64,000 nucleotides of DNA, from positions 19,778 to 83,777 of the forward strand of contig CAVZPI010000014.1 in the NCBI GenBank assembly GCA_963777085.1. Direction: 5' to 3'. The notes beneath the pieces were generated by a model, which saw nothing but the letters and a program-made list of their open reading frames with translations, ran no database searches and was not told the origin of the DNA. Within the stretch, counting starts at the first letter, position 1; each line of letters starts with the position of its first letter. The position numbers and the translations under genes were made by a program. The stretch is from an uncultured Actinomycetes bacterium (GTDB taxonomy: Bacteria > Actinomycetota > Actinomycetes > S36-B12). Below are positions 12,582 to 24,251 of the stretch, piece by piece.

Positions 12582-13991
12582 TCACCACCAGATCCTCTCG
12601 AAGTGGATGTCGGCCGCATCCACGCCGCAGGTGCGCAGGCACCGGAAGGCGGCATTGATCATCGGCTGCGAGCCGCACACGACCACGACTCGCTGGGCCA
12701 CGTCCGGCACCAGCGTGCGCATCACGTCGGGGTCGAACGGGTTGCCGACCTCCAGGGAGCTCGTTCGACCCACCACGGGGATGATCCGGCCGTTACGAGT
12801 CGCGGCCAGGGCCACCAGCTCGTCATAGTGGACGATCTCCGCCTCCCGCCGCGCCCGGTAGATCACGACCGGCTGTGCGTCGGAATCGAAGTCCTCGAGC
12901 AACGAACGAACGGGGGCGATCCCCACCCCTCCCGCGATGAGCAGCAGCTTGCTGCCTCGCAGCTCCTCGTAGATCTTCGTCCCGTACGGGCCCTCGATGG
13001 CCACCTTCGTCCCGACCGGCAGGGCAGTCATCAGCTCGCTGGCTCCACCCAGCGCCTTGATGGTGAATCGGATGCGGTCCATGCGCGGGGCCGCCGAGAT
13101 CGAGTACGGGTGCGGCTGCCAGGCAAGCTTCGGGGTCAGCGGCCGCAGGAGGGCGAACTGGCCGGCGGCCGCCCGAAGGTAGGCCACATTGCGCCCGCCG
13201 AGTTCGATCGCGGCCGCGACGTCGTTCAGCGGGGTCACGGACAGGACCGTCAGGGGCCGCAGTACCGACCGGACCGCCTTGCCCCACCGGCTGACGATCA
13301 CCATGAGCAGCACGATCACGCTCACCGCGATCCAGAATGCCCGGGCCAAGGGGTCGAAGGCCAGGTCCGAGCCCAGGAAGATCTCGTGGGCGAACGCCAG
13401 CGCCAGGGACGCGTAGATCGTCAGGTGGAGGAAGTACCAGGTCTCGTAGGCCAGGTGGCGGCGGACGAAGCCGAGGGACAGGACGGTGATGAGGAGCATG
13501 CCGAGCGCCCCGACGGTGGCCATCGCCATGAACTGCTCTTCGCCGGTCAGCTGCCTGATGGCGTCGGCGAGATCCGTACGGCTCGCGTAGGCGACCACCG
13601 TGGCCGTGATGTGGGCTACCAGGAGGAGCGCCGCCGTCTCGCCCATCCAGCGGTGCCACAGCAGCGCCCGGTCCAGGCCGATTGCGCGCTCGAACCTGTG
13701 CGTCCGGGCGGCGAAGGCGATCCCGGCCAGTGCGACGGACGTGGCGAGCAGTCCCGTCAGCGCTCCGGCGGACTCCCACGCCTCGGCCCAGTCGCCACCG
13801 GTCAGGCTGCTCCAGCCGCCATGCCGCACCCAGATGCCGATCGTGACGACGATGAGCGCAGCCGCGAGGGTGATGGCATCGCTCAGGGCGGGCCCGGGGT
13901 GGCGTGGACGACGAGCCCGATGCGGATGGGCAATCCTGGGTGGCAGCAACCGATGGCCGCCGACGGGCTTGCCTGCCGGGGACGTGGCCAT
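12582..13991 (-). CDS. Ferric-reductase-like transmembrane domain fused to an FAD/NAD(P)-binding oxidoreductase
   Basis: Heme-ligand His motifs WHRW.G, AHI, YETWYFLHL..Y, FAHE. Also HPYSIS, EGPYG, AGGVGIAP, CGS and IHFERIWW. Start placed at MATSP. Confidence 0.9.
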   Translation of the reverse strand: MATSPAGKPVGGHRLLPPRIAHPHRARRPRHPGPALSDAITLAAALIVVTIGIWVRHGGWSSLTGGDWAEAWESAGALTGLLATSVALAGIAFAARTHRFERAIGLDRALLWHRWMGETAALLLVAHITATVVAYASRTDLADAIRQLTGEEQFMAMATVGALGMLLITVLSLGFVRRHLAYETWYFLHLTIYASLALAFAHEIFLGSDLAFDPLARAFWIAVSVIVLLMVIVSRWGKAVRSVLRPLTVLSVTPLNDVAAAIELGGRNVAYLRAAAGQFALLRPLTPKLAWQPHPYSISAAPRMDRIRFTIKALGGASELMTALPVGTKVAIEGPYGTKIYEELRGSKLLLIAGGVGIAPVRSLLEDFDSDAQPVVIYRARREAEIVHYDELVALAATRNGRIIPVVGRTSSLEVGNPFDPDVMRTLVPDVAQRVVVVCGSQPMINAAFRCLRTCGVDAADIHFERIWW

Positions 13992-14013
13992 GCTGCACAG
14001 TGGCACGGTCCGC

Positions 14014-14061
14014 GCTGTGAACCATCGGTGAGAGACCGGGATACCTGAGGGGCACCTGTGC
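14014..14061. promoter_or_regulatory. OmpR/PhoP-type direct repeats in the divergent reductase/apbE intergenic region
   Basis: gctgtga-N4-tcggtga at 14014-14031 (TCACCGA-N4-TCACAGC on minus) and cctgagg-N4-cctgtgc at 14044-14061. Confidence 0.45.
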
Positions 14062-14879
14062 GAACCGACCGTGAGGTGATGGACGGCTGGGCCGAGGGGA
14101 TCTCGGGTTCCGTCGTGCGCGAGGACCGGGTGGTCCATGTCGAGCACGTGTGGAACACGGCCATCACGATCAACGTGGCCGGGACCGACGGACGCGAGCC
14201 GAATGCGTTGGCCGTGATTGCCGACTGCGCCCGGTTCTTCGGCGAAGTGGACCAGACGTTCTCCACCTACAAGCCCCTGACCGAGGTGGCCCTCTACCGT
14301 GCCGGCCTCGGGCGGCCGGACCGGCACTCCGAGGACTTCGAGGAGGTGCTGCTGGCCTGCCGCGAACTGCGCGCCACGACGCATGGCGCCTTCGACCCCT
14401 GGTCAGTCCCGGGCGGCTACGACCCCTCCGGGTACGTCAAGGGGTGGGCGGCGGGCCGTGCGAGCGGGCGGCTGATCGAGGCGGGATTCCGTGATCACCT
14501 GGTGAACGCCAGCGGCGACATCTGTGCGAGTGGTGACGAGGAGACCGGCTCGGGAAGCGGCTGGCCGGTCGGGATCCTCAACCCGCATGCCCCGACCGAG
14601 GTGATCGAGGTCGTCACGCTCCGCAGTCAATCGATGGCGACGTCCGGCCGGTACGAGCGCGGGGACCACGTCATCGACCCGTCGACCGGTCACCCGGCGG
14701 TCGACGTGGACAGTGCCACGGTCGTGGGCCCCGACCCCGGGACGGCCGACGCGGTCGCCTCGGCCGCGCTGGTTGACGGCCTCGCCAGCATGGAATGGTT
14801 CGGCGCCCTTGGCCCGGGCTGGTCCCTGCACGTGGTGGTCGGAGACACTGTGCACGCCTTCGGCCCGGCGTTCGCGTAG
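14058..14879 (+). CDS. apbE: FAD:protein FMN transferase
   Basis: FSTYKP.TEV, GAFDP, DPSGYVKGWA, VNASGD, ATSGRYERGDHVIDP, ADAVASA. Confidence 0.93.
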   Translation: MRTDREVMDGWAEGISGSVVREDRVVHVEHVWNTAITINVAGTDGREPNALAVIADCARFFGEVDQTFSTYKPLTEVALYRAGLGRPDRHSEDFEEVLLACRELRATTHGAFDPWSVPGGYDPSGYVKGWAAGRASGRLIEAGFRDHLVNASGDICASGDEETGSGSGWPVGILNPHAPTEVIEVVTLRSQSMATSGRYERGDHVIDPSTGHPAVDVDSATVVGPDPGTADAVASAALVDGLASMEWFGALGPGWSLHVVVGDTVHAFGPAFA

Positions 14880-15064
14880 CGGTCCGCCCTGAGGCAGGGT
14901 GGGTCCTTCCCCGGGGGAGCCACGTCTCGCAGCAACGCCAGGTCGACGAACTCAGGCGGACCATCATCAACTGCGCCCGCATGCGAGTTCCTCGCTTCCG
15001 CCTTCGACTGCGATCGGGACTTAGTGCTCTCACGCGATCACTCGGATGCGAGTAACCCTTGCTC

Positions 15065-15960
15065 ATGCTCCGTTTCGAGATCGTCAGGCGGGAGGACTTC
15101 TCCGACGTCACCTTCTCGCTCGACGTCCGGCACCCGCTGATGGCCAAGGCGGCCCGACCGGGCCAGTTCGTGATCGTGATGCTCCACGAGCAGGGCGAGC
15201 GGATTCCGCTGACGCATCGCGGATTTCGACCGGGTCGACGGCACCATCACGCTGGTGATCCAGGCGGTGGGCAAGACCACCAAGCAGATGCAGCAGACGA
15301 CTGCCTGGTCGGCACGTCGCTGTACGGCATGGTCGGTCCGATGGGCATCCCCGAGCGAGATCAGCCGATGCCAAGAAGGTCGTGTGCGTCGGCGGCGGCC
15401 TCGGCGTCGCACCGATCTTCCCGCAGGCGCGCGGGTACAAGGAGGCCGGCGCATACGTGATCGGGGTCGTCGGCTTCCGCACCAAGGAGCTGGTGTTCTG
15501 GGAGGACAGGTTCCGGGCCTTCTGCGACGAGTACATCATCTGCACGGACGACGGCTCGGCCGGCATCAAGGGCCTGGTGACCGAGGGCATCAAGCAGGCC
15601 ATCGCGCAGGCACGCCGACATCGACGAGGTCGTGGCCATCGGCCCGCCGGTCATGATGCGCGGATGCGTCGAGACGACCCGTCCCTACAACATCAGGACG
15701 GTGGTGAGCCTGAACCCGGTGATGGTGGATGGCACCGGACATGTGCGGCGGCTGCCGGGTCAGGATCGGCGGCCAGGTGAAGTTCGCCTGCGTCGACGGG
15801 CCCGACTTCGACGGGCACCAGGTCGACTTCGACGACCTGATGACTCGACTGCGCCGGTACAAGGTCGAGGAGAAGGCGGCCCTGGAGAACTGGGAGAGCG
15901 CCTGCCGCATGCGAAGCGACGTCGACGCTGAACCGTGGTGCGACGCGGTAGGCGGGAGCG
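15065..15960 (+). CDS. nfnA: NfnA/SudB-like FAD/NAD-binding [2Fe-2S] subunit (several frameshifts; end approximate)
   Basis: Motifs pieced across frames: ARPGQFVIV...GERIPLT, QAVGKTT, GPMG, CVGGGLGVAP, TDDGSAG.KG, IGPPVMM, SLNPVMVDGTG-MCGGCRV, FACVDGPDFDGHQVDFD. Confidence 0.8.
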
Positions 15961-15963
15961 GTC

Positions 15964-17458
15964 ATGGCAAAGAAGAAGACGATCCGGACGATCCCCCAGG
16001 AACGCACGCCCGATGCTCGAGCAGGACCCGGCGGTGCGGCGGGGAACTTCGAGGAGGTCGCGTGCGGCTACCCGCTGGAGGAGGCGCTCCGGGAGTCCGA
16101 GCGGTGCCTGCAGTGCCCGGACCAGCCATGCGTGTCCGGGTGCCCGGTCGGCATCGACATCCCCGGCTTCATCCAGAAGGTCAGCGAGAAGGACGTTCGG
16201 GGCGCCTACGACATCCTCGACGACCACGAACCTGCTCCCGGCGGTCTGCGGACGGGTCTGCCCGCAGGAGAACCAGTGCGAGGGCGTGTGCGTCGTCGGC
16301 GAGTCCCTGGAGCCGGTGGCGATCGGACGCCTGGAGCGGTTCGTCGGCGACACCGCGATCGCCGAGGGCTGGGTCAACCTGCCGCACATCGAGCCCACCC
16401 GATTCAAGGTGGGCATCGTCGGATCGGGGCCGGCCGGCATGGCGTGCGCGGCCGACATGGCCAAGGCGGGCTGCGAGGTGACCGTCTTCGAGGCATTCCA
16501 CCAGCCCGGCGGAGTGCTCAAGTACGGCATCCCCGACTTCCGGCTGCCGAACACGGTCATCGACGCGGAGATCGGCAACCTCAGGCGACTCGGGGTCACA
16601 TTCGAGTGCAACACGCTGGTCGGCCGCCTGTTCACCATCGAGCAGATGATCGGCGAGATGGGATACGACGCCGTGTTCATCGGTGTCGGCGCGGGCTACC
16701 CGACCATGCTCGGGATTCCTGGAGACTCGTTGAACGGCGTGCTCTCTGCCAACGAGCTGCTGACCCGCTGCAACCTGATGCGTGCCAAGGAGTTCCCGGC
16801 CTTCGACACGCCGCAGCCGATCGGCAGGCGAGTGGCCGTGGTCGGAGCCGGCAACACCGCGATGGACGCCCTGCGCGTCTCCATCCGCCTGGGCGCCGAG
16901 AAGGTCCACTGCGTCTACCGACGGTCGCGCAACGAGGCACCGGCCCGAGCCGAGGAGGTGCACCACGCGGAGCAGGAGGGCGTCGAGTTCCACTGGCTGA
17001 CCAACCCGGTCGAGGTCCTCGACGACGGCGAGGGCGGCGTGCGCGGCATGCGGTGCGTGCGCATGGAGCTCGGCGAGCCTGACGACTCGGGGCGCAGACG
17101 GCCCGTCCCGGTCGCGGGGAGCGAGTTCGACTTCGACGTTGATCTCATCGTCTACGCCATCGGCACCAACGCCAATCCCATCATGGGACAGACCTCGGGC
17201 CTGAGGCTGAGCAAGCGGGGCTACATCGACGCAGACGCAAGCCTCGCCACGTCGCTCGCGGGCGTCTTCGCCGGCGGTGACATCGTCACCGGCGCCGCCA
17301 CCGTGATCGAGGCGATGGGAGCCGGCCGCAAGGCCGCGACCGGGATGAAGGCCTACCTCGGCATCCGGGATGTCCACCGTCCCTATGCGGGCGATGGCCC
17401 TCGCCTGTTCGGAATCGATCGTGCGGAACACGGCTTCCGCCGTGTGCACGTGGCGTGA
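15964..17458 (+). CDS. nfnB: NfnB/SudA-like NADPH-dependent glutamate synthase small-subunit homologue (frameshifts near 16010-16225)
   Basis: NFEEV..G...ESERCLQC...CVSGCPVGIDIP, NLLPAVCGRVCPQENQCEGVC, GSGPAG, YGIPDFRLP, GAGNTAMD, YRRS, FAGGDIVTGAATVIEAMGAGR. Confidence 0.85.
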
Positions 17459-17475
17459 TGGGAGCGGTCGACGAC

Positions 17476-19377
17476 ATGAGTACTGCGATCGCGGATGCCC
17501 GCCCGGCCGGCCCGGAGGCCGCTGCGGACTCCATAGTCGAGCTGCGGGAGCACATCGTCGAGATCATCAGCGACTCGGGCGAGGGCGCCCAGAGCTGCGG
17601 GCAGTCGCTCGGATCCATTGCGGCCAGGATGGGCAACGGCATCTGGACGACGGAGATCATCCCGGCCGAGATCCGGCCACCCGCCCGAAGCGTGGCGGGT
17701 GCCAGTGGCAACCGGATTCGCATCGGCTCCGGACCCGTGACGAACGGTGGCGACGAGACCGACCTCGTGGTGGCCTTCAACGAGCAGGTCCTGCTGGGGC
17801 GGGTGCGCGATCGCGAGCTCAAGCCGGGGTGCGTCATCCTGCTGGAGAGTGCCTGGCGGGAGCATCCCGACCGCGGGATCAAGGACTCCTACGTCGAGGC
17901 GCACAAGCGCCTCGTCGAGTCGGGCTACCGGGTGCTACGAGGTGCCGATGGAGCAGGAGTGCCGCCGGCTGGTCAACGATGCGCGGCGCGGCAAGAACAT
18001 GTTCGCCCTGGGCATGCTCTGCCACATCTACAGCTTCGACCTGCAGATCGCACGCGATCAGATCGTGCGCACGTTCCGCAAGAAGTCGCAGTCCGTCATC
18101 GAGACGAACTGGACACTCCTGGACGCGGGGTACGAATGGGCCCGGGCCAATCTCGATCTGCGCTTCCGCATTCCGGTGACGGCAACGTCCGGCCCGCAGA
18201 TCGTCACCAACGGCAACACCGCGATCGCCCTCGGCGTCATGGCCTCGGGCATGGAGCTGTGCGCCATGTACCCGATCACGCCGGCCACCTCGGCCTCGCA
18301 CTACCTCTCGGACGTCTTCGAGCAAGGTCGGCGGCATCGTGCACCAGGCCGAGGACGAGATCGCGGCCTGTGCGTTCGCCATCGGCGCCTCGTACGCGGG
18401 CAAGTGCACGGTCACGATCACCTCCGGACCCGGGCTACTCGCTCAAGCAGGAGGCCATCGGGCTCGCGGTGATGGCCGAGATCCCGCTCGTCGTGGTGAA
18501 CGTCCAGCGTGGTGGCCCCTCCACGGGCCAGCCGACCAAGACCGAGCAGGGCGACCTGATGACGGCGATCTTCGGCAGTCACGGCGATGCGCCCAAGGTG
18601 GTCATGGCGCCGGCGACCATCGAGGACTGCTTCTACTCGATCATCACCGCGCGCAGGATCGCCGAGACCTTCAACATGGTGGTCGTCGTCCTCACCGACG
18701 CCGGGCTCGCGACCTCGCAGCAGCCGTATCCGCGGCCGGAGTTCAGCGAGAAGTGGCTGGCGCCGCCCATCGACCAGAGCCCGGTCGCACCGGGCGCGAA
18801 GCCCTACGACTGGGATGCCACTACGGGCCTGGCCCGCCGGTTCATCCCCGGGCAGCCCGGCGGGATGCACACCGTCACCGGCCTCGCGCACGACCCGGAG
18901 AGCCACGTCGCCTACGACCCCGACATCAACATGCAGGGCCTGCGAGCGCGCAGCCTGAAGCTGGCGGCGCTGCAGCGCACGCTGCGGCCGCCGGACGTGC
19001 TCGGGGCAGACGAGGGAGAGCTGCTCGTCGTCGGCTGGGGCAGCACCAAGGGGGCGATCGAGGAGGTCGTCGAGTCCCTTCGCGAGGAGGGCAGATCGGT
19101 CTCGTCCATCCATCTGCGCTTCCTCAACCCGCTGCCGCCGGGGATCAAGGAGATAATGCAGCGCTTCGCGAAGGTCATCGCCATCGAGACGAACTTCAGC
19201 GACAACCCCGACGACCAGATCATCGACGAGTCGAATCGCCGGTACTCGTCGATGGCGATCCTGCTGCGCTCGCGCTACCTGGTCGACGTCGACTGCTGGA
19301 GCGAGGTGCGTGGCCGACCGCTCAGGCCGAGCACCCTGCGTGAGGTCCTTCTCGCGAAGCTGGGGAACCAGGCATGA
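17476..19377 (+). CDS. korA: 2-oxoacid:ferredoxin oxidoreductase alpha subunit, gamma-alpha fusion (frameshifts)
   Basis: SDSGEGAQ, IPAEIRPP, KNMFALG, GNTAIALG, YPITPATS, QAEDEIAA, TSGPG.SLKQE, VQRGGPSTG.PTK.EQGD, GWGSTKG across three frames. Confidence 0.88.
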   Translation: MSTAIADARPAGPEAAADSIVELREHIVEIISDSGEGAQSCGQSLGSIAARMGNGIWTTEIIPAEIRPPARSVAGASGNRIRIGSGPVTNGGDETDLVVAFNEQVLLGRVRDRELKPGCVILLESAWREHPDRGIKDSYVEAHKRLVESGYRVLRGADGAGVPPAGQRCAARQEHVRPGHALPHLQLRPADRTRSDRAHVPQEVAVRHRDELDTPGRGVRMGPGQSRSALPHSGDGNVRPADRHQRQHRDRPRRHGLGHGAVRHVPDHAGHLGLALPLGRLRARSAASCTRPRTRSRPVRSPSAPRTRASARSRSPPDPGYSLKQEAIGLAVMAEIPLVVVNVQRGGPSTGQPTKTEQGDLMTAIFGSHGDAPKVVMAPATIEDCFYSIITARRIAETFNMVVVVLTDAGLATSQQPYPRPEFSEKWLAPPIDQSPVAPGAKPYDWDATTGLARRFIPGQPGGMHTVTGLAHDPESHVAYDPDINMQGLRARSLKLAALQRTLRPPDVLGADEGELLVVGWGSTKGAIEEVVESLREEGRSVSSIHLRFLNPLPPGIKEIMQRFAKVIAIETNFSDNPDDQIIDESNRRYSSMAILLRSRYLVDVDCWSEVRGRPLRPSTLREVLLAKLGNQA

Positions 19378-20336
19378 CCACGACGGAGATCTCGACCACT
19401 CAGTGCCTGCTCGAGCTCTATGACCAGCGGCGCAGCCTGGAGGACTACCAGAGCGGCGTGCCACGGTGGTGCACCGGTTGCGGTGACAACGCCATCCTCG
19501 CGGCCGTCCAGCGACTGTGCCGTGACCAGGGCCTGCGCCCGGAGAAGACCGTCTTCGTATCGGGCATCGGATGCTCGAGCCGCTTCCCGCACTACCTGAA
19601 CACCTATGGATTCCACGGCATCCACGGCCGGGCACTGCCGATCGCCGAGGGGGTGAAGATGGCGAGACCGGAGCTCACGGTGTTCGTCAACACCGGTGAT
19701 GGCGACCTGTGCAGCATCGGCGCCGCACACTGGATCCATGCCATCCGGTACAACATGAACCTCACGGTCTTCCTGCACGACAACCAGATCTACGGTCTGA
19801 CCAAGAAGCAGGCGTCACCGACGTCACCCATCGGCACCAAGAGCAACACGACACCGCGGGGCAGCTACCTCGAGGCGCTCAACCCGTTGACCGTCTCGCT
19901 CGGTGTCGCCAACGTGTCCTTCGTGGCGCAGGCCGTCGACTGGATTCCCGAGAGCCTGTTCGACATCGTCAACGCGGCCTACCAGCACAAGGGCCTGTCG
20001 TTCGTGCGGATCATCCAGCGCTGTCCGGAGTGGCTTCCCAAGTCGCTGGAACCGTGGATGCAGGACCCGAACAAGGTGCAGCTGCTTCACCACGAGAGGG
20101 CCCTGCCGATGAGCACGAGCCTTGCCATGGTCTACAAGAACACCCTGGAGCATGATCCGCTGGACATCGATCGCGCACGGGAGATCGCGTCGTCGGTCGA
20201 CGTCATCCCCGTGGGAGTCCTGTATCAGAACAGGGACGTGCCGTGCTACGAGGAGACGAGGCAGACAGGAGTACTGCGCACTGACGCGGTCATCAGGAGC
20301 GGTCTCGAAGCCGAGTTCGACAAGTACACGGTCTGA
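19374..20336 (+). CDS. korB: 2-oxoacid:ferredoxin oxidoreductase beta subunit (ThDP-binding)
   Basis: RWCTGCGD, SGIGCSSRFP, HGIHGRALP, GDGD...HDNQIYGLTKKQASPT. ATGA overlap with the alpha gene. Confidence 0.92.
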   Translation: MTTTEISTTQCLLELYDQRRSLEDYQSGVPRWCTGCGDNAILAAVQRLCRDQGLRPEKTVFVSGIGCSSRFPHYLNTYGFHGIHGRALPIAEGVKMARPELTVFVNTGDGDLCSIGAAHWIHAIRYNMNLTVFLHDNQIYGLTKKQASPTSPIGTKSNTTPRGSYLEALNPLTVSLGVANVSFVAQAVDWIPESLFDIVNAAYQHKGLSFVRIIQRCPEWLPKSLEPWMQDPNKVQLLHHERALPMSTSLAMVYKNTLEHDPLDIDRAREIASSVDVIPVGVLYQNRDVPCYEETRQTGVLRTDAVIRSGLEAEFDKYTV

Positions 20337-20350
20337 CGCGGGCGACGGAC

Positions 20351-22550
20351 ATGGATGCGAACCTCCAGGCGCACATCGCCTTCCACCTCACAGGGAATCG
20401 GGCAGGGACCCACCTGGACTCGATAGCCGAACCGCGACTCGGTGCCGGCCCTGCTTGCCGAGTACCAGGACCTGTGCTCGCTGCGCTACGACTTCCCCCT
20501 GGTGCTGCTGGACAAGCCCGCGGGCGGCCATTGCGTGGAGCCGATGTCCGGGCTGATCGACGACATCCTCGAGCAGTCGGCCACTGGCGCCGAGGCCGAC
20601 CGCATCCGGCAGCATGTCCTGCGCCTCGAGGCAGGCATCCGGACGCGGGTCGCCAACGGGGTGCAGGGATCGTTCTCGGAGCTGTGGGACATCGTGGCCG
20701 CGGCCCTCTCGGACCGCGACGAGCTGGTGGCGGACAGCCTGTCGCGTGCTCGGCTCGCGCTTTGCATCGACGGTGCGGTCCTGGACTGCGACGTGGACCT
20801 GCCGTATCGACTCATTAGCCGGGCCTGGGGGATCTCCCTGGATCAACGTGCGGCCCAGTTCAACGAGATCGTCGCCCGACTGATCCAGAGGCTGACGGAC
20901 ATCCTCAAGGCGGACTTCCAGGGTTCGCGCGAGGGGCGCACTGCCGAGAACCTGAGGGCCTCCTTCGGCAACGGCCCGATGGACGCCTTCGACTTCGAGG
21001 CCATGTCCCGCATCCTCGGCGGGTCGGCCGCCACGACGCAGCTCCCCGGGAGTCGCCGCCAGCGGCTTGAGGAGCTGCTCTCGGTCCTGCATTCGCAGCG
21101 GTTCTACGCGACGCCGTCGTCCGCGTGCGATGTCTACGCGTTCACCTTCGAGGACTGTGCCAGTGCACTCGAGGCGTACCGCAAGCGGCTGCCCCGCGCC
21201 GTCGAGCTGGCCCGGGCGATCGCCATCGGGGAGCTCGAGGTCACGGGGGAGTACGACGAGGCAAGGCATGAGCTGCTGTTCGAGTCCTTCGGCAGCAATG
21301 GGCTGGATGCCGAGTACCAGGCGATGTTCCCCGACTACCTGGTGCGCCTCGCTGCGGGCGGCATGCGCGCCCAGGAGCAGGAGCTGCTGTTCGAGATCCT
21401 GTCTGCGGACCTCCCCTTCAAGGTGCTCGTGCAGACCGACGACGTTCTCGAGGAGTCGGAGATCGGCGATGGGCACCTCGCGCTCTCGCTGCGCAGCAGG
21501 AGCCTCGCCAGCACGGCGATGGGGCTGACCGGAGTGTTCGTGCTGCAGTCGCCGAGCTCGGCCCTGCTGCACCTGCGCCACGAGATCCGCAGCGGGCTGG
21601 ACGGCTCAGGGCCGGCCCTGTTCAGCATCTTCTCCGGATCGAGCGCGGCTCGAGCCGGCTCGTCCTCGTACCTGGTCGCGGCCGCGGCCCTGGAGTCGAG
21701 GGCGTTCCCGGTATTCGTCTACGACCCGACCGCCGGTCACGACTGGGCGTCCCGGTTCTCAATCGCGGGGAACCCGCAGCCCGAGCAGGACTGGCCCCTG
21801 AACGGCTTCTCGTATCAGGATCAGGCGTGCCAGGCGGTGTCCGGCCGCGTCCCGTTCAGCCTCGTGGACTTCGTCTCGATCGATCCCCGGTACTCGCGGC
21901 ACTTCGCCCGCGTCGCGCAGGAGGAGTGGTCCGACGCTCTCGTGCCCGCGACCGACGTCGTGGATCGTGCCCGCCGGGAGAAGGTCGACCAGGTGCCCAG
22001 CCTGCTGATGGTCGACGCCGAGGACGCACTGCACATGGTCATCGTCGATGAGCTGGTGATCCGTGAGGCGCGCAGATGCCGATCCATGTGGCACAGCCTG
22101 CAAGAGCTCGGGGGCATTCACAACTCGCATGCCGAGCGACTGCTGGCCCGGGAGGAGGCGGTCTGGCAGGACCGCCTGCAGGAGCGACTCGCCGTGCCCT
22201 CTCAGGAGGGCACGGACGCTGCCGATGCGGCACCCGGGCCTGCTGTGGGGACCCCTCCTGAATCGGTGCAGGTGGAGCTCGAGGCTGACGTCGAGAGATC
22301 CTCGGACGAGGCCTATATCGAGACCGCTCGCTGCTCGACGTGCAACGAGTGCACCCAGATCAACAAGGCGATGTTCGTGTACAACGAGAACCAGCAGGCG
22401 TACATCGCCGACATCGCTGCGGGTACCTTCGCCCAGCTGGTGGAGGCAGCCGAGAGCTGCCAGGTCTCCGTGATCCATCCCGGCAGGCCTCGGGATCCGA
22501 ACGAGCCCGGGCTGGAGGAACTGCTGAAGCGCGCAGGGCTGTTCGACTAG
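20351..22550 (+). CDS. Large uncharacterised protein: degenerate POR C-terminal-like region plus C-terminal ferredoxin (one frameshift near 20435)
   Basis: Begins MDANLQAHIAFHLTG, continues PALLA.Y.DL..LRYDFPLVL and ALESRAFPVFVYDP..G..W..RF...GNPQPEQDWP, ends CSTCNECT...AAESCQV..IHPG. Confidence 0.8.
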
Positions 22551-22577
22551 CACCCTCGCGCAGGCTCGGGTCGAGAC

Positions 22578-24251
22578 CTACGAGACCCGCCCGAGCAGGT
22601 AGTCGCGTCTGGCCACGAGCGTCTCCCACGGAGCCGTCGCCGAGGGAGGGCCGGGAACCTCCTTGCGGGTGGCCACGTGGATCTCCGAGTGCTTGCGCCC
22701 GGACCGGCCGGCGAGCTGCCCGACGAGCTGGTGGATCTCCTTGCGAATGGACTCCAGATCGCGCCACGACGTCAGTTCCAGCGCGTCGTTCATCTCGTCG
22801 AAGAGCGTCACGGGAACGCGCTTTCGCAGGTCCGCGTCTCGGGAGGCCAGCAGGGTCGCGGTCTGCTCGGGCGTGAGCAGGCCGGGCAGCCCGATGAAGT
22901 CCTCGTCCTCGGTGCTCAGCTCCGCGGTGATGGCCCGACCTGCGTGCAGCAGATGGGCGAACTCGGCCTCGGCCTGAAGAGCGGTGAACTCCACTCCCGA
23001 GGGATCCGGCTGGACCCGTTCCATCTGCATCGTGTCGAGTCCGCCCTCCTCGGGCCCGGTGATCCTGACGACGTGGTTGCGCTCCTCCTCCATGCTCGCC
23101 GCGAGCGCGAGCAGCGGCCGCACCGCGGGCAGGAACACCGTGGCCGTCTCAGAGGAGTTGCGCGCCCGGACGACGCGCCCCACCGCCTGGGTGAAGAACA
23201 GCGGCGTGCGGAACGAGCAGCTCCACAGGCACACGCTCAGGCGCACGATGTCGACGCCCTCGGACACCTGCTTCACCGCCACCAGCCAGCGTTCCGTGCC
23301 CGTGTTGAACGCCTCGATCTTCTTGCTCGAGCGGGGGTCGTCCGAGAGCACGAGGACGGGTGTGTGGCCGGTCACTCGCTTGACGACCTTCGCGTAGGCG
23401 CGGGCCGTCTCCTGGTCGGTGGCGAGCATGAGCACGGCGGCATCGGGCATGCCGGACTCGCGGATATCGGTCAGGCGCTGATCCGCGGCGGCGACGACGT
23501 GCGGGATCCACTGCCCGCCCGGGTCCAGGGCGGTGCGCCATGCGGCGTCCTCCGTGCCCTGGCTGCCCGCCTCCGACAGCGAGGCGCTCAGCACGTCGCC
23601 CGCGGAGTTCATCCAGCGGCTGGTACCCGAGTAGGCGGCGAAGACCACGGGCCGGACGACCCCGTCGGCCAGCGCCTCCTTGTAGCCGTACGTGTGGTCC
23701 GCGTCCGACAGGAGCCCGTCGTCGGACGACTCGTATCGGACGAAGGGGATCCGCTCGTCCGCCTTGGTCCGGAAGGGGGTCCCGGTGAGGCTCAGGCGGC
23801 GCCGTGCGGGGGTGAATGCCTCGCTCACGGCGTCACCCCATGTCAGGCCGTCGCCCGCGTGGTGGATCTCGTCGAGGATCACCAGAGTGCGTGCGTTCTC
23901 GGTGCGGGCACGATGCAGCATCGGGTGGCCGGCGACCTGCGCGTACGTCGTCACGTATCCGTGCGTCCCGGGCCGGACGGGACCCGTGCTGTTCTTCAGG
24001 GTGGGATCGAGGATGAGGCCCATCCGAGCGGCGGCGTCTGCCCACTGGGTGCGCAGGTGGTCCGTCGGGGCGACGACGACAATGCGATTGATGGCCCGGC
24101 TCTGCTCCATCCTCAGCGCCAGGACCAGGGCGAACGTGGTCTTGCCGGAGCCCGGAGTCGCGCTGACGAGGAAGTCCATGGGCTGCCGGGACTCGTACTC
24201 CGCCAGGGCCTCGCGTTGCCAGCGCCGCAGTCCTGGTGGCAGTTCTCTCAA
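22578..24251 (-). CDS. Superfamily II DEAD/DEAH-box helicase
   Basis: ATPGSGKT, DEIHH, TGTPFR, SEGVDI, QAVGRVVR. Confidence 0.92.
   Translation of the reverse strand: MRELPPGLRRWQREALAEYESRQPMDFLVSATPGSGKTTFALVLALRMEQSRAINRIVVVAPTDHLRTQWADAAARMGLILDPTLKNSTGPVRPGTHGYVTTYAQVAGHPMLHRARTENARTLVILDEIHHAGDGLTWGDAVSEAFTPARRRLSLTGTPFRTKADERIPFVRYESSDDGLLSDADHTYGYKEALADGVVRPVVFAAYSGTSRWMNSAGDVLSASLSEAGSQGTEDAAWRTALDPGGQWIPHVVAAADQRLTDIRESGMPDAAVLMLATDQETARAYAKVVKRVTGHTPVLVLSDDPRSSKKIEAFNTGTERWLVAVKQVSEGVDIVRLSVCLWSCSFRTPLFFTQAVGRVVRARNSSETATVFLPAVRPLLALAASMEEERNHVVRITGPEEGGLDTMQMERVQPDPSGVEFTALQAEAEFAHLLHAGRAITAELSTEDEDFIGLPGLLTPEQTATLLASRDADLRKRVPVTLFDEMNDALELTSWRDLESIRKEIHQLVGQLAGRSGRKHSEIHVATRKEVPGPPSATAPWETLVARRDYLLGRVS

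Follow-up and report, generated by a model that had tools for sequence, protein, structure and literature searches.

The stoichiometry of the electron-bifurcating enzyme NfnAB is established for Thermotoga maritima and Pyrococcus furiosus. The two-subunit 2-oxoacid:ferredoxin oxidoreductases (OFORs) of the Magnetococcus marinus and Sulfolobus tokodaii type are described as using free ferredoxins in the part of PMC12337175 that concerns them. For the Flx-Hdr system with KorABCD of sulfur-oxidising symbionts, it has been proposed that a 2-oxoglutarate:ferredoxin oxidoreductase (OGOR) receives its electrons straight from a bifurcating complex (passages of PMC6315080 and PMC13147460). A 2026 review of the diversity of pyruvate:ferredoxin oxidoreductase (PFOR) distinguishes one-, two-, four- and five-subunit forms, and its section 3 contains nothing like the protein X that is discussed below (PMC13768988). 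Here we describe an operon of five genes, nfnA, nfnB, korA, korB and X, located in a stretch of 64,000 nt (the window, in whose positions coordinates are given) from the genome of an uncultured Actinomycetes bacterium (G000), where it occupies contig C14:34.8-42.4 kb. We suggest, with a probability of roughly 0.6, that it is a horizontally acquired cassette which acts as one redox module, coupling 2-oxoacid/acyl-CoA plus CO2 chemistry to pyridine nucleotides. It probably wires a 2-oxoacid-splitting enzyme to NADH and NADPH, by way of a hitherto undescribed protein, a dead copy of an enzyme with a small iron-sulfur ferredoxin on a flexible arm.

The locus was originally predicted, from the sequence alone, to be a candidate for an undescribed system. 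Our literature searches found no published account of an Nfn-Kor operon or of X. What is new here is the actinobacterial host, the history of transfer, and the indication that an apparent decay of the genes is mostly an artefact of assembly.

The genes all lie on the + strand at 15065-22550, co-oriented and as tightly packed as had been claimed, with junctions that range from -4 to about +30 nt. The gap between nfnA and nfnB is ~30 nt; the stop codon of nfnB overlaps the start codon of korA in GTGATG (17455-17460), korA overlaps korB in ATGA (19374-19377), and 14 nt separate the stop of korB from the start of X. A scan of 14500-23000 for promoters and terminators gave none of either, and such a scan is uninformative at 68% G+C.

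Conservation was examined in 23 genome loci, 22 metagenome loci and three further genomes. Close relatives, in which X is at least 37% identical, are referred to here as group 1. The order nfnA-nfnB-korA-korB-X is kept in all 16 group-1 loci that have enough upstream DNA, while the other group-1 loci end at contig borders, with no different gene in place in any of them. Genome members of the 16 are the window, G002, G367, L028, Propionivibrio, Sterolibacterium, Rhodopila and Acetobacteraceae, and the further members are three metagenome-assembled genomes (MAGs) of Betaproteobacteria and six metagenome contigs; within each of the sets L035/L058/L059 and L060/L061/L062 the records are identical or nearly so. 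The 16 loci span two other actinobacterial lineages as well as Alpha- and Betaproteobacteria. Over all loci with upstream DNA, korB is directly upstream of X in 39 of 39 (two being duplicate records). It is concluded that the five-gene set is not a chance juxtaposition, because its order recurs in every close-relative locus that reaches far enough upstream. The original prediction had depended on co-occurrence of the genes in relatives, and this is what is found.

The least familiar of the five proteins is X. Its family is large, with 1750 homologs between 715 and 760 aa in length that are labelled 'hypothetical' or 'ferredoxin', and at E ≤ 1e-30 there are 1409 representative clusters. Named members come from Accumulibacter, Propionivibrio and Rhodoferax. 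No NCBIfam family matches X. The only Pfam domain found in it is a C-terminal Fer4_13, at 20 bits and thus under the cut-off of 24.5; the same domain passes the cut-off in relatives (34 bits in L042 and L044), and PF13370 occurs among the precomputed annotations of X homologs. TPP_enzyme_C was not detected in X by Pfam.

An AlphaFold model of X was built from 23 sequences, with a mean pLDDT of 80.7 and a pTM of 0.72. The body of the model matches domain VI of Moorella thermoacetica PFOR (6cin_A, residues ~695-1170) with Z 21.1 and an rmsd of 5.1 over 270 aligned residues, the oxalate oxidoreductase β subunit 5exe_C with Z 17.7, and Methanosarcina acetivorans PorB (9bt4_C) with Z 17.1. X is thus predicted to have a PP-type thiamine pyrophosphate (TPP)-binding fold. 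In alignment with long PFORs of like C-terminal architecture, the GDG...NN motif is absent, X having AAGGMRAQ...QTDDVLEES where the actinobacterial long PFOR has GGDG...NSGVYSNTGGQ, and the position of the TPP motif is not conserved within the X family. The cysteine ligands of the proximal [4Fe-4S] cluster are also absent, with SGSSAARAG at the position of TPCGGEHG in the long PFOR. The sole invariant cysteines in the 23 sequences are C631, C634, C637 and C673, all in the ferredoxin domain. This C-terminal domain combines the ligand pattern CxxCxxC...C with a ferredoxin fold, and residues 621-683 match Desulfovibrio africanus ferredoxin I (1fxr) with Z 8.8 and an rmsd of 2.8 over 63 of 64 residues. 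It is joined to the body by a tether, of which residues 586-620 are disordered in the model (pLDDT <50). Measured from the body motif to the cysteine motif, the tether is 59-116 residues long, with a combined Ala, Pro and Glu fraction of 0.37-0.61, in 22 of the 23 sequences; in the remaining one the motif was not found.

The fold of PFOR domain VI is kept while the TPP motif and the cluster cysteines are gone, and X is therefore a predicted pseudoenzyme, descended from the β half of PFOR and carrying a tethered ferredoxin. The earlier description of it as 'POR-like/ferredoxin' can be sharpened to a cofactor-less PFOR domain-VI fold with a tethered ferredoxin. We also considered X as an alternative active β subunit, and rejected this since the TPP motif and the cluster cysteines are absent.

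X is homologous to the C-terminal half of long PFOR and PFOR-like proteins, at 23-31% identity. Among the best 150 of the 1409 representatives, eight are longer (1236-1565 aa) and have X behind a degenerate N-terminal half of PFOR, in which PFOR_II is detected in two of the eight. One of these long forms, P0194, is collinear with a 'PFOR-like' protein of Sedimenticola and shows no similarity to KorA. No fusion of X to KorA, KorB or Nfn was found among the same 150. Neighbours of X in the ESM Atlas include active proteins with TPP_enzyme_C and Fer4_13. A viral fold library gave no matches at E ≤ 0.001, which has no bearing on the question. A PFOR of ~1700 aa, with all canonical domains, an Ala/Pro-rich linker and a C-terminal Fer4_15, is encoded at L011:5362-10470 (G032), and the same-order relatives G031, G024 and G007 also carry one. 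This long PFOR is predicted from its sequence to be an active enzyme, sharing the tethered-ferredoxin architecture of X.

Turning to the OFOR subunits, Pfam finds POR, POR_N and PFOR_II in KorA, both in the window open reading frame (ORF) and in the full-length ortholog from the congener G002. The window korA is in four pieces that match KorA of G002 and L029 at 67-100% identity. Its best match of solved structure is the α subunit of M. marinus OGOR (6n2n_A, E 5.7e-78). KorB has TPP_enzyme_C and PFO_beta_C; C33, C36, C67, C217, the GDGD at 108-111 and N137 are invariant in all eight aligned sequences, and the best solved matches are the β subunits of S. tokodaii OFOR (2.1e-53) and M. marinus OGOR (3e-47). 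A Pfam scan found no Fer4 domain in KorA or KorB. By these motifs KorAB is a complete two-subunit OFOR, with one predicted [4Fe-4S] cluster and no ferredoxin domain, and it therefore depends on an external carrier of single electrons. Its overall similarity to M. marinus OGOR makes 2-oxoglutarate the probable substrate.

The window nfnA is spread in pieces over four frames, and these are 62-88% identical to the ortholog from G002. This ortholog matches the small subunit of P. furiosus NfnI (5jca_S) with E 1.4e-96 and carries the Pfam domain DHODB_Fe-S_bind, a [2Fe-2S] domain. The window pieces themselves encode ...DGTG / MCGGCRV...FACVDGP, interrupted by a frame break. There is thus a PyrK-like small subunit, with FAD/NAD domains and a [2Fe-2S] site, encoded directly upstream of nfnB.

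The window nfnB ORF has Fer4_20 and Pyr_redox_2, and although truncated it passes NCBIfam TIGR01316 (485 bits, cut-off 471.75). The nfnB pieces contain CLQCPDQPCVSGCP and VCGRVCPQENQCEGVC. Residues 13-464 of the intact NfnB ortholog (G002, L012) match T. maritima NfnB (4ylf_B) with E 1.5e-161, both Cys-rich cluster motifs being aligned, and P. furiosus NfnI is matched with E 3.3e-139. The match to GltD, the small subunit of glutamate synthase, is far weaker (6s6s_G, E 1.9e-84). NfnB is accordingly a GltD-fold large subunit with two [4Fe-4S] motifs, FAD and an NADPH site, and is nearer to NfnB than to GltD. A gltB partner was looked for in the operon and none was found; a separate gltB-gltD pair, in which a Fer4_20 gene lies beside gltB, is present on contig C24. 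We therefore reject the alternative, raised in the original prediction, that the NfnB-like gene is a true GltD: the matches to NfnB are far stronger, and the genome has its own gltBD. The identities first proposed for NfnA, NfnB and the OFOR α and β subunits are backed by Pfam domains and matches to solved structures, and for NfnB also by NCBIfam. The NfnAB of the cassette is a close homolog of solved electron-bifurcating NfnAB, and the same activity is predicted for it.

NfnB has a C-terminal extension of ~30 aa beyond the end of the T. maritima NfnB alignment; T. maritima NfnB lacks it, and it is present in all 10 group-1 orthologs examined. Its motif is ..LGIRD....LFGID..ERNF.R.R.. (core LFGI..ER), encoded at the 3' end of nfnB (16240-17458). 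The tail is a possible docking element.

A distant branch of the family, found in sulfur-oxidising Gammaproteobacteria, SAR324 and Planctomycetota, has an X of 830-900 aa that is 25-30% identical. Here the order is korA-korB-X-rnfB-'PFOR-like'-rnfC..., and in six loci (L037, L038, L042, L047, L067, L073) FrdA-like and NuoF-like genes lie directly before korA. These may be another bifurcating front end, from NADH to fumarate and ferredoxin. In L037 and L038 there is an extra ORF of ~140 aa without Pfam match beside the FrdA-like and NuoF-like genes (L037:1460-4772). The partner of KorAB-X is thus Nfn in group 1, whereas in the distant branch KorAB-X goes with a NuoF-type NADH module and Rnf. 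These parallel pairings give comparative support for a role as carrier between KorAB and pyridine-nucleotide or membrane redox modules. The original prediction had pointed to similar clusters of Proteobacteria which also carry PFOR and Rnf genes. Such clusters do exist, but they belong to the distant branch, and the nearest proteobacterial relatives have the five genes of the window and neither PFOR nor Rnf.

The 'PFOR-like' proteins beside rnfB are 1300-1540 aa long (L042:13189-17820, L037:11179-15753 and L044:14292-18188, gammaproteobacterial and SAR324). They keep domains I and II and the Fe-S domain V, have GNDETLGG or GDHKSL in place of GGDG, and have no cysteine at the proximal-cluster position and no Pfam TPP_enzyme_C. 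Going by these sequences they may be catalytically dead in domain VI. In passages of papers on tubeworm symbionts, the genes appear under the names 'dimeric korAB' and 'PFOR-like', with no role assigned to them (PMC11636981, PMC6315080).

X is rare in Actinomycetota. It was found in two of 24 congeners (G002 and G007), and in one of 400 other Actinomycetota genomes sampled (E ≤ 1e-30), namely G367, which has all five genes. Loci with the whole cassette come from Propionivibrio, Sterolibacterium, MAGs of Acetobacteraceae and a small number of groundwater or freshwater actinobacteria. When 32 X proteins are arranged in a maximum-likelihood tree, the window falls in a clade of eight rows (support 100/100) which is nested among Rhodocyclaceae/Rhodoferax; further out come Sterolibacterium, Acetobacteraceae and the remaining Betaproteobacteria, and the distant branch lies outside them all. 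A rapidly built KorB tree agrees with this and places the second KorB of the genome (C6) far away, and KorB is 79-81% identical to betaproteobacterial copies. The cassette of G002 (L012, C1:203000-222000) lies in a different neighbourhood, with a short-chain dehydrogenase/reductase gene and a phage-tail-sheath-like gene. Because the two trees are congruent, X is rare in Actinomycetota and the neighbourhood in G002 differs, the cassette most likely moved as a unit, from Betaproteobacteria to a few actinobacterial lineages. The phylogenies suggested as a check on horizontal transfer thus favour it, the actinobacterial copies nesting inside Betaproteobacteria. The module had also been called unexpected, as one unit, among genes ordinary for an actinomycete. 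OFORs in general are not alien to this genome: it has a second korAB on contig C6 and a PFOR on contig C18.

The genes are not all open in the window. Counted against the intact orthologous locus L028, from an Actinomycetes MAG (78% nucleotide identity, 7472 columns), there are 14 frame-breaking indels in the operon, of which seven are in nfnA, three in nfnB, three in korA, none in korB and one in X. Thirteen are extra bases, single or double and outside homopolymers; the other is one missing base, and there are no larger deletions. Reading through the breaks (which skips the indel, gap and stop codons, together 3-5 reference codons per gene) gives identities to L028 of 85% for NfnA (291 codons), 86% for NfnB, 86.5% for KorA, 90% for KorB and 67% for X. 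The corresponding dN/dS values are 0.12, 0.10, 0.10, 0.07 and 0.21, a range that resembles the intact orthologs G002 and L029 compared with L028 and gives no sign of relaxed selection.

The breaks were also compared with Logan contigs of a public groundwater metagenome (run X1, depth 4-9). At the positions of at least nine of the 14 breaks, or a few bases away, these contigs lack a base, all among the matches listed as 'left out' (15214, 15295, 15297, 15353, 15368, 15606, 15735/15739/15740, 18323/18326 and 18428). Three other runs, X2-X4, cover only small shares of the stretch. The base differences listed between window and X1 contigs fall at codon position 3 in 27 of 40 cases, and 15 of the 16 listed in korA and korB are synonymous. 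Elsewhere in the G000 assembly, which has 40 contigs and a completeness of 53.9%, the second korAB (C6:16929-19371), the PFOR (C18:56924-60270) and gltB (C24:37207-38311) are each split between frames. The congener G002 is broken at other places, in korB near residue 247 and in X near residue 572 (L012). As a control, 88 long ORFs were taken from 300 kb of the complete congener G020, and 38 had an ortholog at 65% identity or more; six of these 38 orthologs change frame, at 11 places over a total of 54.7 kb (0.20 per kb). As a further control rpoB was sought, and is not in the assembly. The original prediction had asked whether the frameshifts mean decay. The 14 breaks are very probably for the most part insertions made in sequencing or assembly. 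Many single-base insertions occur in the assembly, and gene calls therefore need frameshift-aware handling.

The proposed mechanism is as follows. X would dock through its dead β-like body, and its swinging tethered ferredoxin would shuttle electrons one at a time between the cluster of KorB and the [4Fe-4S] chain of NfnB. Run oxidatively, the module would convert 2-oxoacid + CoA + NADH + 2 NADP+ to acyl-CoA + CO2 + NAD+ + 2 NADPH. In reverse, oxidation of NADPH with NAD+ as co-acceptor could push reductive carboxylation. Cellular potentials of about -380 mV for NADP and -280 mV for NAD are given in a passage of PMC13147460, citing Buckel and Thauer, and at such potentials bifurcation-driven carboxylation would be near equilibrium and hence conceivable.

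A bolder form of the proposal makes the cassette a self-contained electron-bifurcating 2-oxoacid synthase, and X a new class of pseudoenzyme, a 'swinging-arm' adaptor. NfnAB would then oxidise NADPH and split the two electrons, of which the first would go downhill to NAD+ and the second uphill to the tethered ferredoxin of X, which would feed KorAB as it carboxylates succinyl-CoA (or acetyl-CoA). We hold this to be rather doubtful. If true, it would let bacteria without a soluble pool of low-potential ferredoxin fix CO2 into 2-oxoacids, or run the reaction in reverse as an NADPH booster.

Several observations weigh against the reading of the locus as a transferred, working module. Gene order alone does not tell a physical complex from enzymes that share a carrier, and it is not evident where on an (αβ)2 OFOR the dead β-like domain would dock. 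The X tree has a midpoint root only, and within the clade of the window four rows, the window included, are known Actinomycetota, while three of the eight are metagenome proteins without a taxon. The remaining points concern the frame breaks, and would suit a decaying cassette, in which the frameshifts are real and the operon of this strain, or nfnA and nfnB at the least, no longer works. The local density of breaks is 1.9 per kb (14 in 7.5 kb), about nine times that sampled in the 38 control genes; seven breaks fall within the 0.87 kb of nfnA, and ten are bunched in a stretch of 1.2 kb that runs from nfnA into the start of nfnB. At 15218-16224 only eight of the 22 listed substitutions are synonymous by the assigned frames. 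The X1 contigs diverge by 1-3% from the window and may represent a sister strain, and there may have been a very recent true inactivation of nfnA in this strain. The cassette is moreover accessory, with a patchy distribution. We nevertheless consider decay improbable: it would not be expected to consist of single or double extra bases with one missing base, to cost so few codons per gene with dN/dS as in intact orthologs, or to be undone in the X1 contigs, and both the conserved genes broken elsewhere in the assembly and the differently placed breaks of G002 point to errors of assembly.

If the cassette is intact, it may still be coupled only loosely. The genes would be co-transcribed, with KorAB(-X) and NfnAB as separate soluble enzymes and no five-subunit complex; X would be a large dedicated ferredoxin, or the ferredoxin pool of the cell would serve. 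NfnAB and two-subunit OFORs do use free ferredoxins in characterised organisms, according to parts of PMC12337175 and PMC13768988, and the long tether could let the ferredoxin domain reach its partners in trans. However, a conserved body of ~560 residues is a costly carrier for a ferredoxin of 60 residues, and the fixed order of the genes, together with the overlaps between stop and start codons, suggests assembly into one unit, as do the group-specific tail of NfnB and the constant adjacency of korB and X. On balance we regard loose coupling as unlikely, while taking it seriously. A role for X as an accessory factor of KorAB, in oxygen protection, assembly or regulation, and not as a carrier between two enzymes, seems to us very improbable. 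It is true that X follows korB even without nfnAB, in the distant branch with rnfB and the PFOR-like gene, and therefore the primary partner of X would be KorAB, not Nfn. Pseudoenzyme scaffolds often regulate active paralogues, and domain VII of D. africanus PFOR is a model for such an accessory role. Yet the only invariant cofactor site in X is a complete four-Cys ferredoxin, and the neighbours of X are always electron-transfer modules, be they Nfn, NuoF-like or RnfB. We therefore return to the reading as one module, tying 2-oxoacid chemistry to NAD(P)H through a ferredoxin subunit, much as originally predicted. It is supported by the parts, their motifs and their linkage, and from these we infer the association of the proteins. 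The features of the locus are collected in Table 1.

Table 1. Genes, parts of X, adjacent genes and frame breaks, in window positions.
Feature	Position	Strand	Remarks
nfnA (PyrK-type FAD/[2Fe-2S] small NfnAB subunit)	15065..15931	+	ATG 15065 (MLRFEIV...); spread over several frames
nfnB (GltD-fold; predicted FAD, NADPH site, two [4Fe-4S])	15964..17458	+	ATG 15964 behind GGGAG box
korA (OFOR α, domains III-I-II)	17455/17458..19377	+	Pfam and solved-structure matches
korB (predicted catalytic OFOR β; TPP site, single proximal [4Fe-4S])	19374..20336	+	intact, 320 aa
X (~730 aa; predicted cofactor-less PFOR domain-VI paralogue with tethered ferredoxin)	20351..22550	+	ATG 20351, ends TAG
X, main open frame	20442..22550	+	702 codons; extra base at 20440 splits off first ~30 codons
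X, body (residues 18-558 of the 702-aa frame)	20493..22115	+	predicted PFOR domain VI / OFOR β fold, long helical inserts
X, tether (residues 586-620)	22197..22301	+	Ala/Pro/Glu-rich, pLDDT <50
X, C-terminal single-cluster ferredoxin domain	22302..22490	+	CxxCxxC...C; C631, C634, C637, C673
ApbE flavin transferase	14058-14879	+	upstream of cassette
ResIII/DEAD helicase, 557 aa	22578-24251	-	convergent with cassette, gene end at 22578
Frame breaks in nfnA	15214, 15297 (2 nt), 15353, 15364, 15607, 15740, 15929	+	relative to L028
Frame breaks in nfnB	16009, 16039 (one missing base), 16218	+	relative to L028
Frame breaks in korA	17934, 18323, 18429	+	relative to L028
Frame break in X	20440 (extra base)	+	relative to L028

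The wider flanks of the cassette are ordinary chromosomal genes (P-type ATPase, RF3, aminotransferases, ABC transporters), and a scan of 24 flanking ORFs from 954 to 42352, and of the ORFs of the cassette region, found no integrase or transposase. The host is an actinobacterium by its RF3, whose named homologs belong to Actinomycetota, Frankiales, Mycobacteriales and Brevibacterium. The adjacent ApbE and helicase genes are non-adjacent or absent in the five congeners compared. A membrane ferric-reductase-like flavoprotein (Ferric_reduct, FAD_binding_8, NAD_binding_1; - strand) is encoded divergently from the ApbE gene, the pair lying at 12582-14879; the two ORFs as listed overlap by ~330 nt, and one of the two starts has therefore probably been called wrongly. 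In G002 the pair is not kept beside the cassette. Similarity of the helicase to TIGR04095, a family of DNA-phosphorothioation restriction enzymes, is weak (62.7 bits, cut-off 600), and the gene was found in one of the five congeners checked.

The chemistry of 2-oxoacids and CO2 runs at about -500 mV. If the five proteins act as one module, they would form a compact route between 2-oxoacid/CO2 and NADH/NADPH that needs no free ferredoxin. The cassette is found in ecologically important bacteria that are uncultured or hard to study, and if the reading is true it would bear on the balance of reducing power in polyphosphate- and glycogen-accumulating organisms, a link that is our own; no paper linking the cassette to these organisms was found in our literature searches. 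It would also bear on the sites of reductive carboxylation beyond strict anaerobes, and would mean that pseudoenzymes derived from PFOR act as electron-transfer scaffolds.

It remains to compare the cassette with known systems. It resembles NfnAB and NfnI (T. maritima 4YLF, P. furiosus 5JCA) in having two Nfn subunits in the same gene order, with a near full-length match and aligned Fe-S motifs. It differs in that the genes share an operon with an OFOR and X, and in the conserved C-terminal extension of ~30 residues on NfnB. The hosts also differ, being actinobacteria, Alphaproteobacteria and Betaproteobacteria (including Rhodoferax and Propionivibrio), in contrast to the anaerobes from which NfnAB structures have been solved. 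KorAB is like M. marinus OGOR (6N2N) and S. tokodaii OFOR (5B46/5B48), with an α subunit of domains III-I-II, a β subunit with TPP and one [4Fe-4S] cluster, and no domain V; unlike these, korB of the cassette is always followed by a gene for a tethered ferredoxin. In the long PFORs with a C-terminal Fer4_13 or Fer4_15 (1500-1700 aa; G032 L011, Sedimenticola L042), it is the C-terminal half to which X is homologous. GGDG and the cluster cysteines are present in the actinobacterial long PFOR, whereas X is without both, and without domains I-III and V.

The coupling of an OFOR to a flavoprotein also has parallels. In Flx-Hdr with KorABCD an OFOR is likewise hard-wired to a flavin-based bifurcating module, as deduced there from conserved gene interspersion, but the parts are a four-subunit OGOR and FlxABCD-HdrABC, with no Nfn and no X. 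The closest functional precedent, by description only, is KorABC of Azoarcus evansii, said to have been described by Ebenau-Jehle et al. in 2003. This is reportedly a three-subunit 2-oxoglutarate:NADP+ oxidoreductase, in which an OFOR core is joined to an FAD subunit, a flavoprotein that reduces NADP+. It is said to have this one extra flavoprotein subunit, where the cassette has an Nfn pair and a predicted pseudo-β ferredoxin adaptor.

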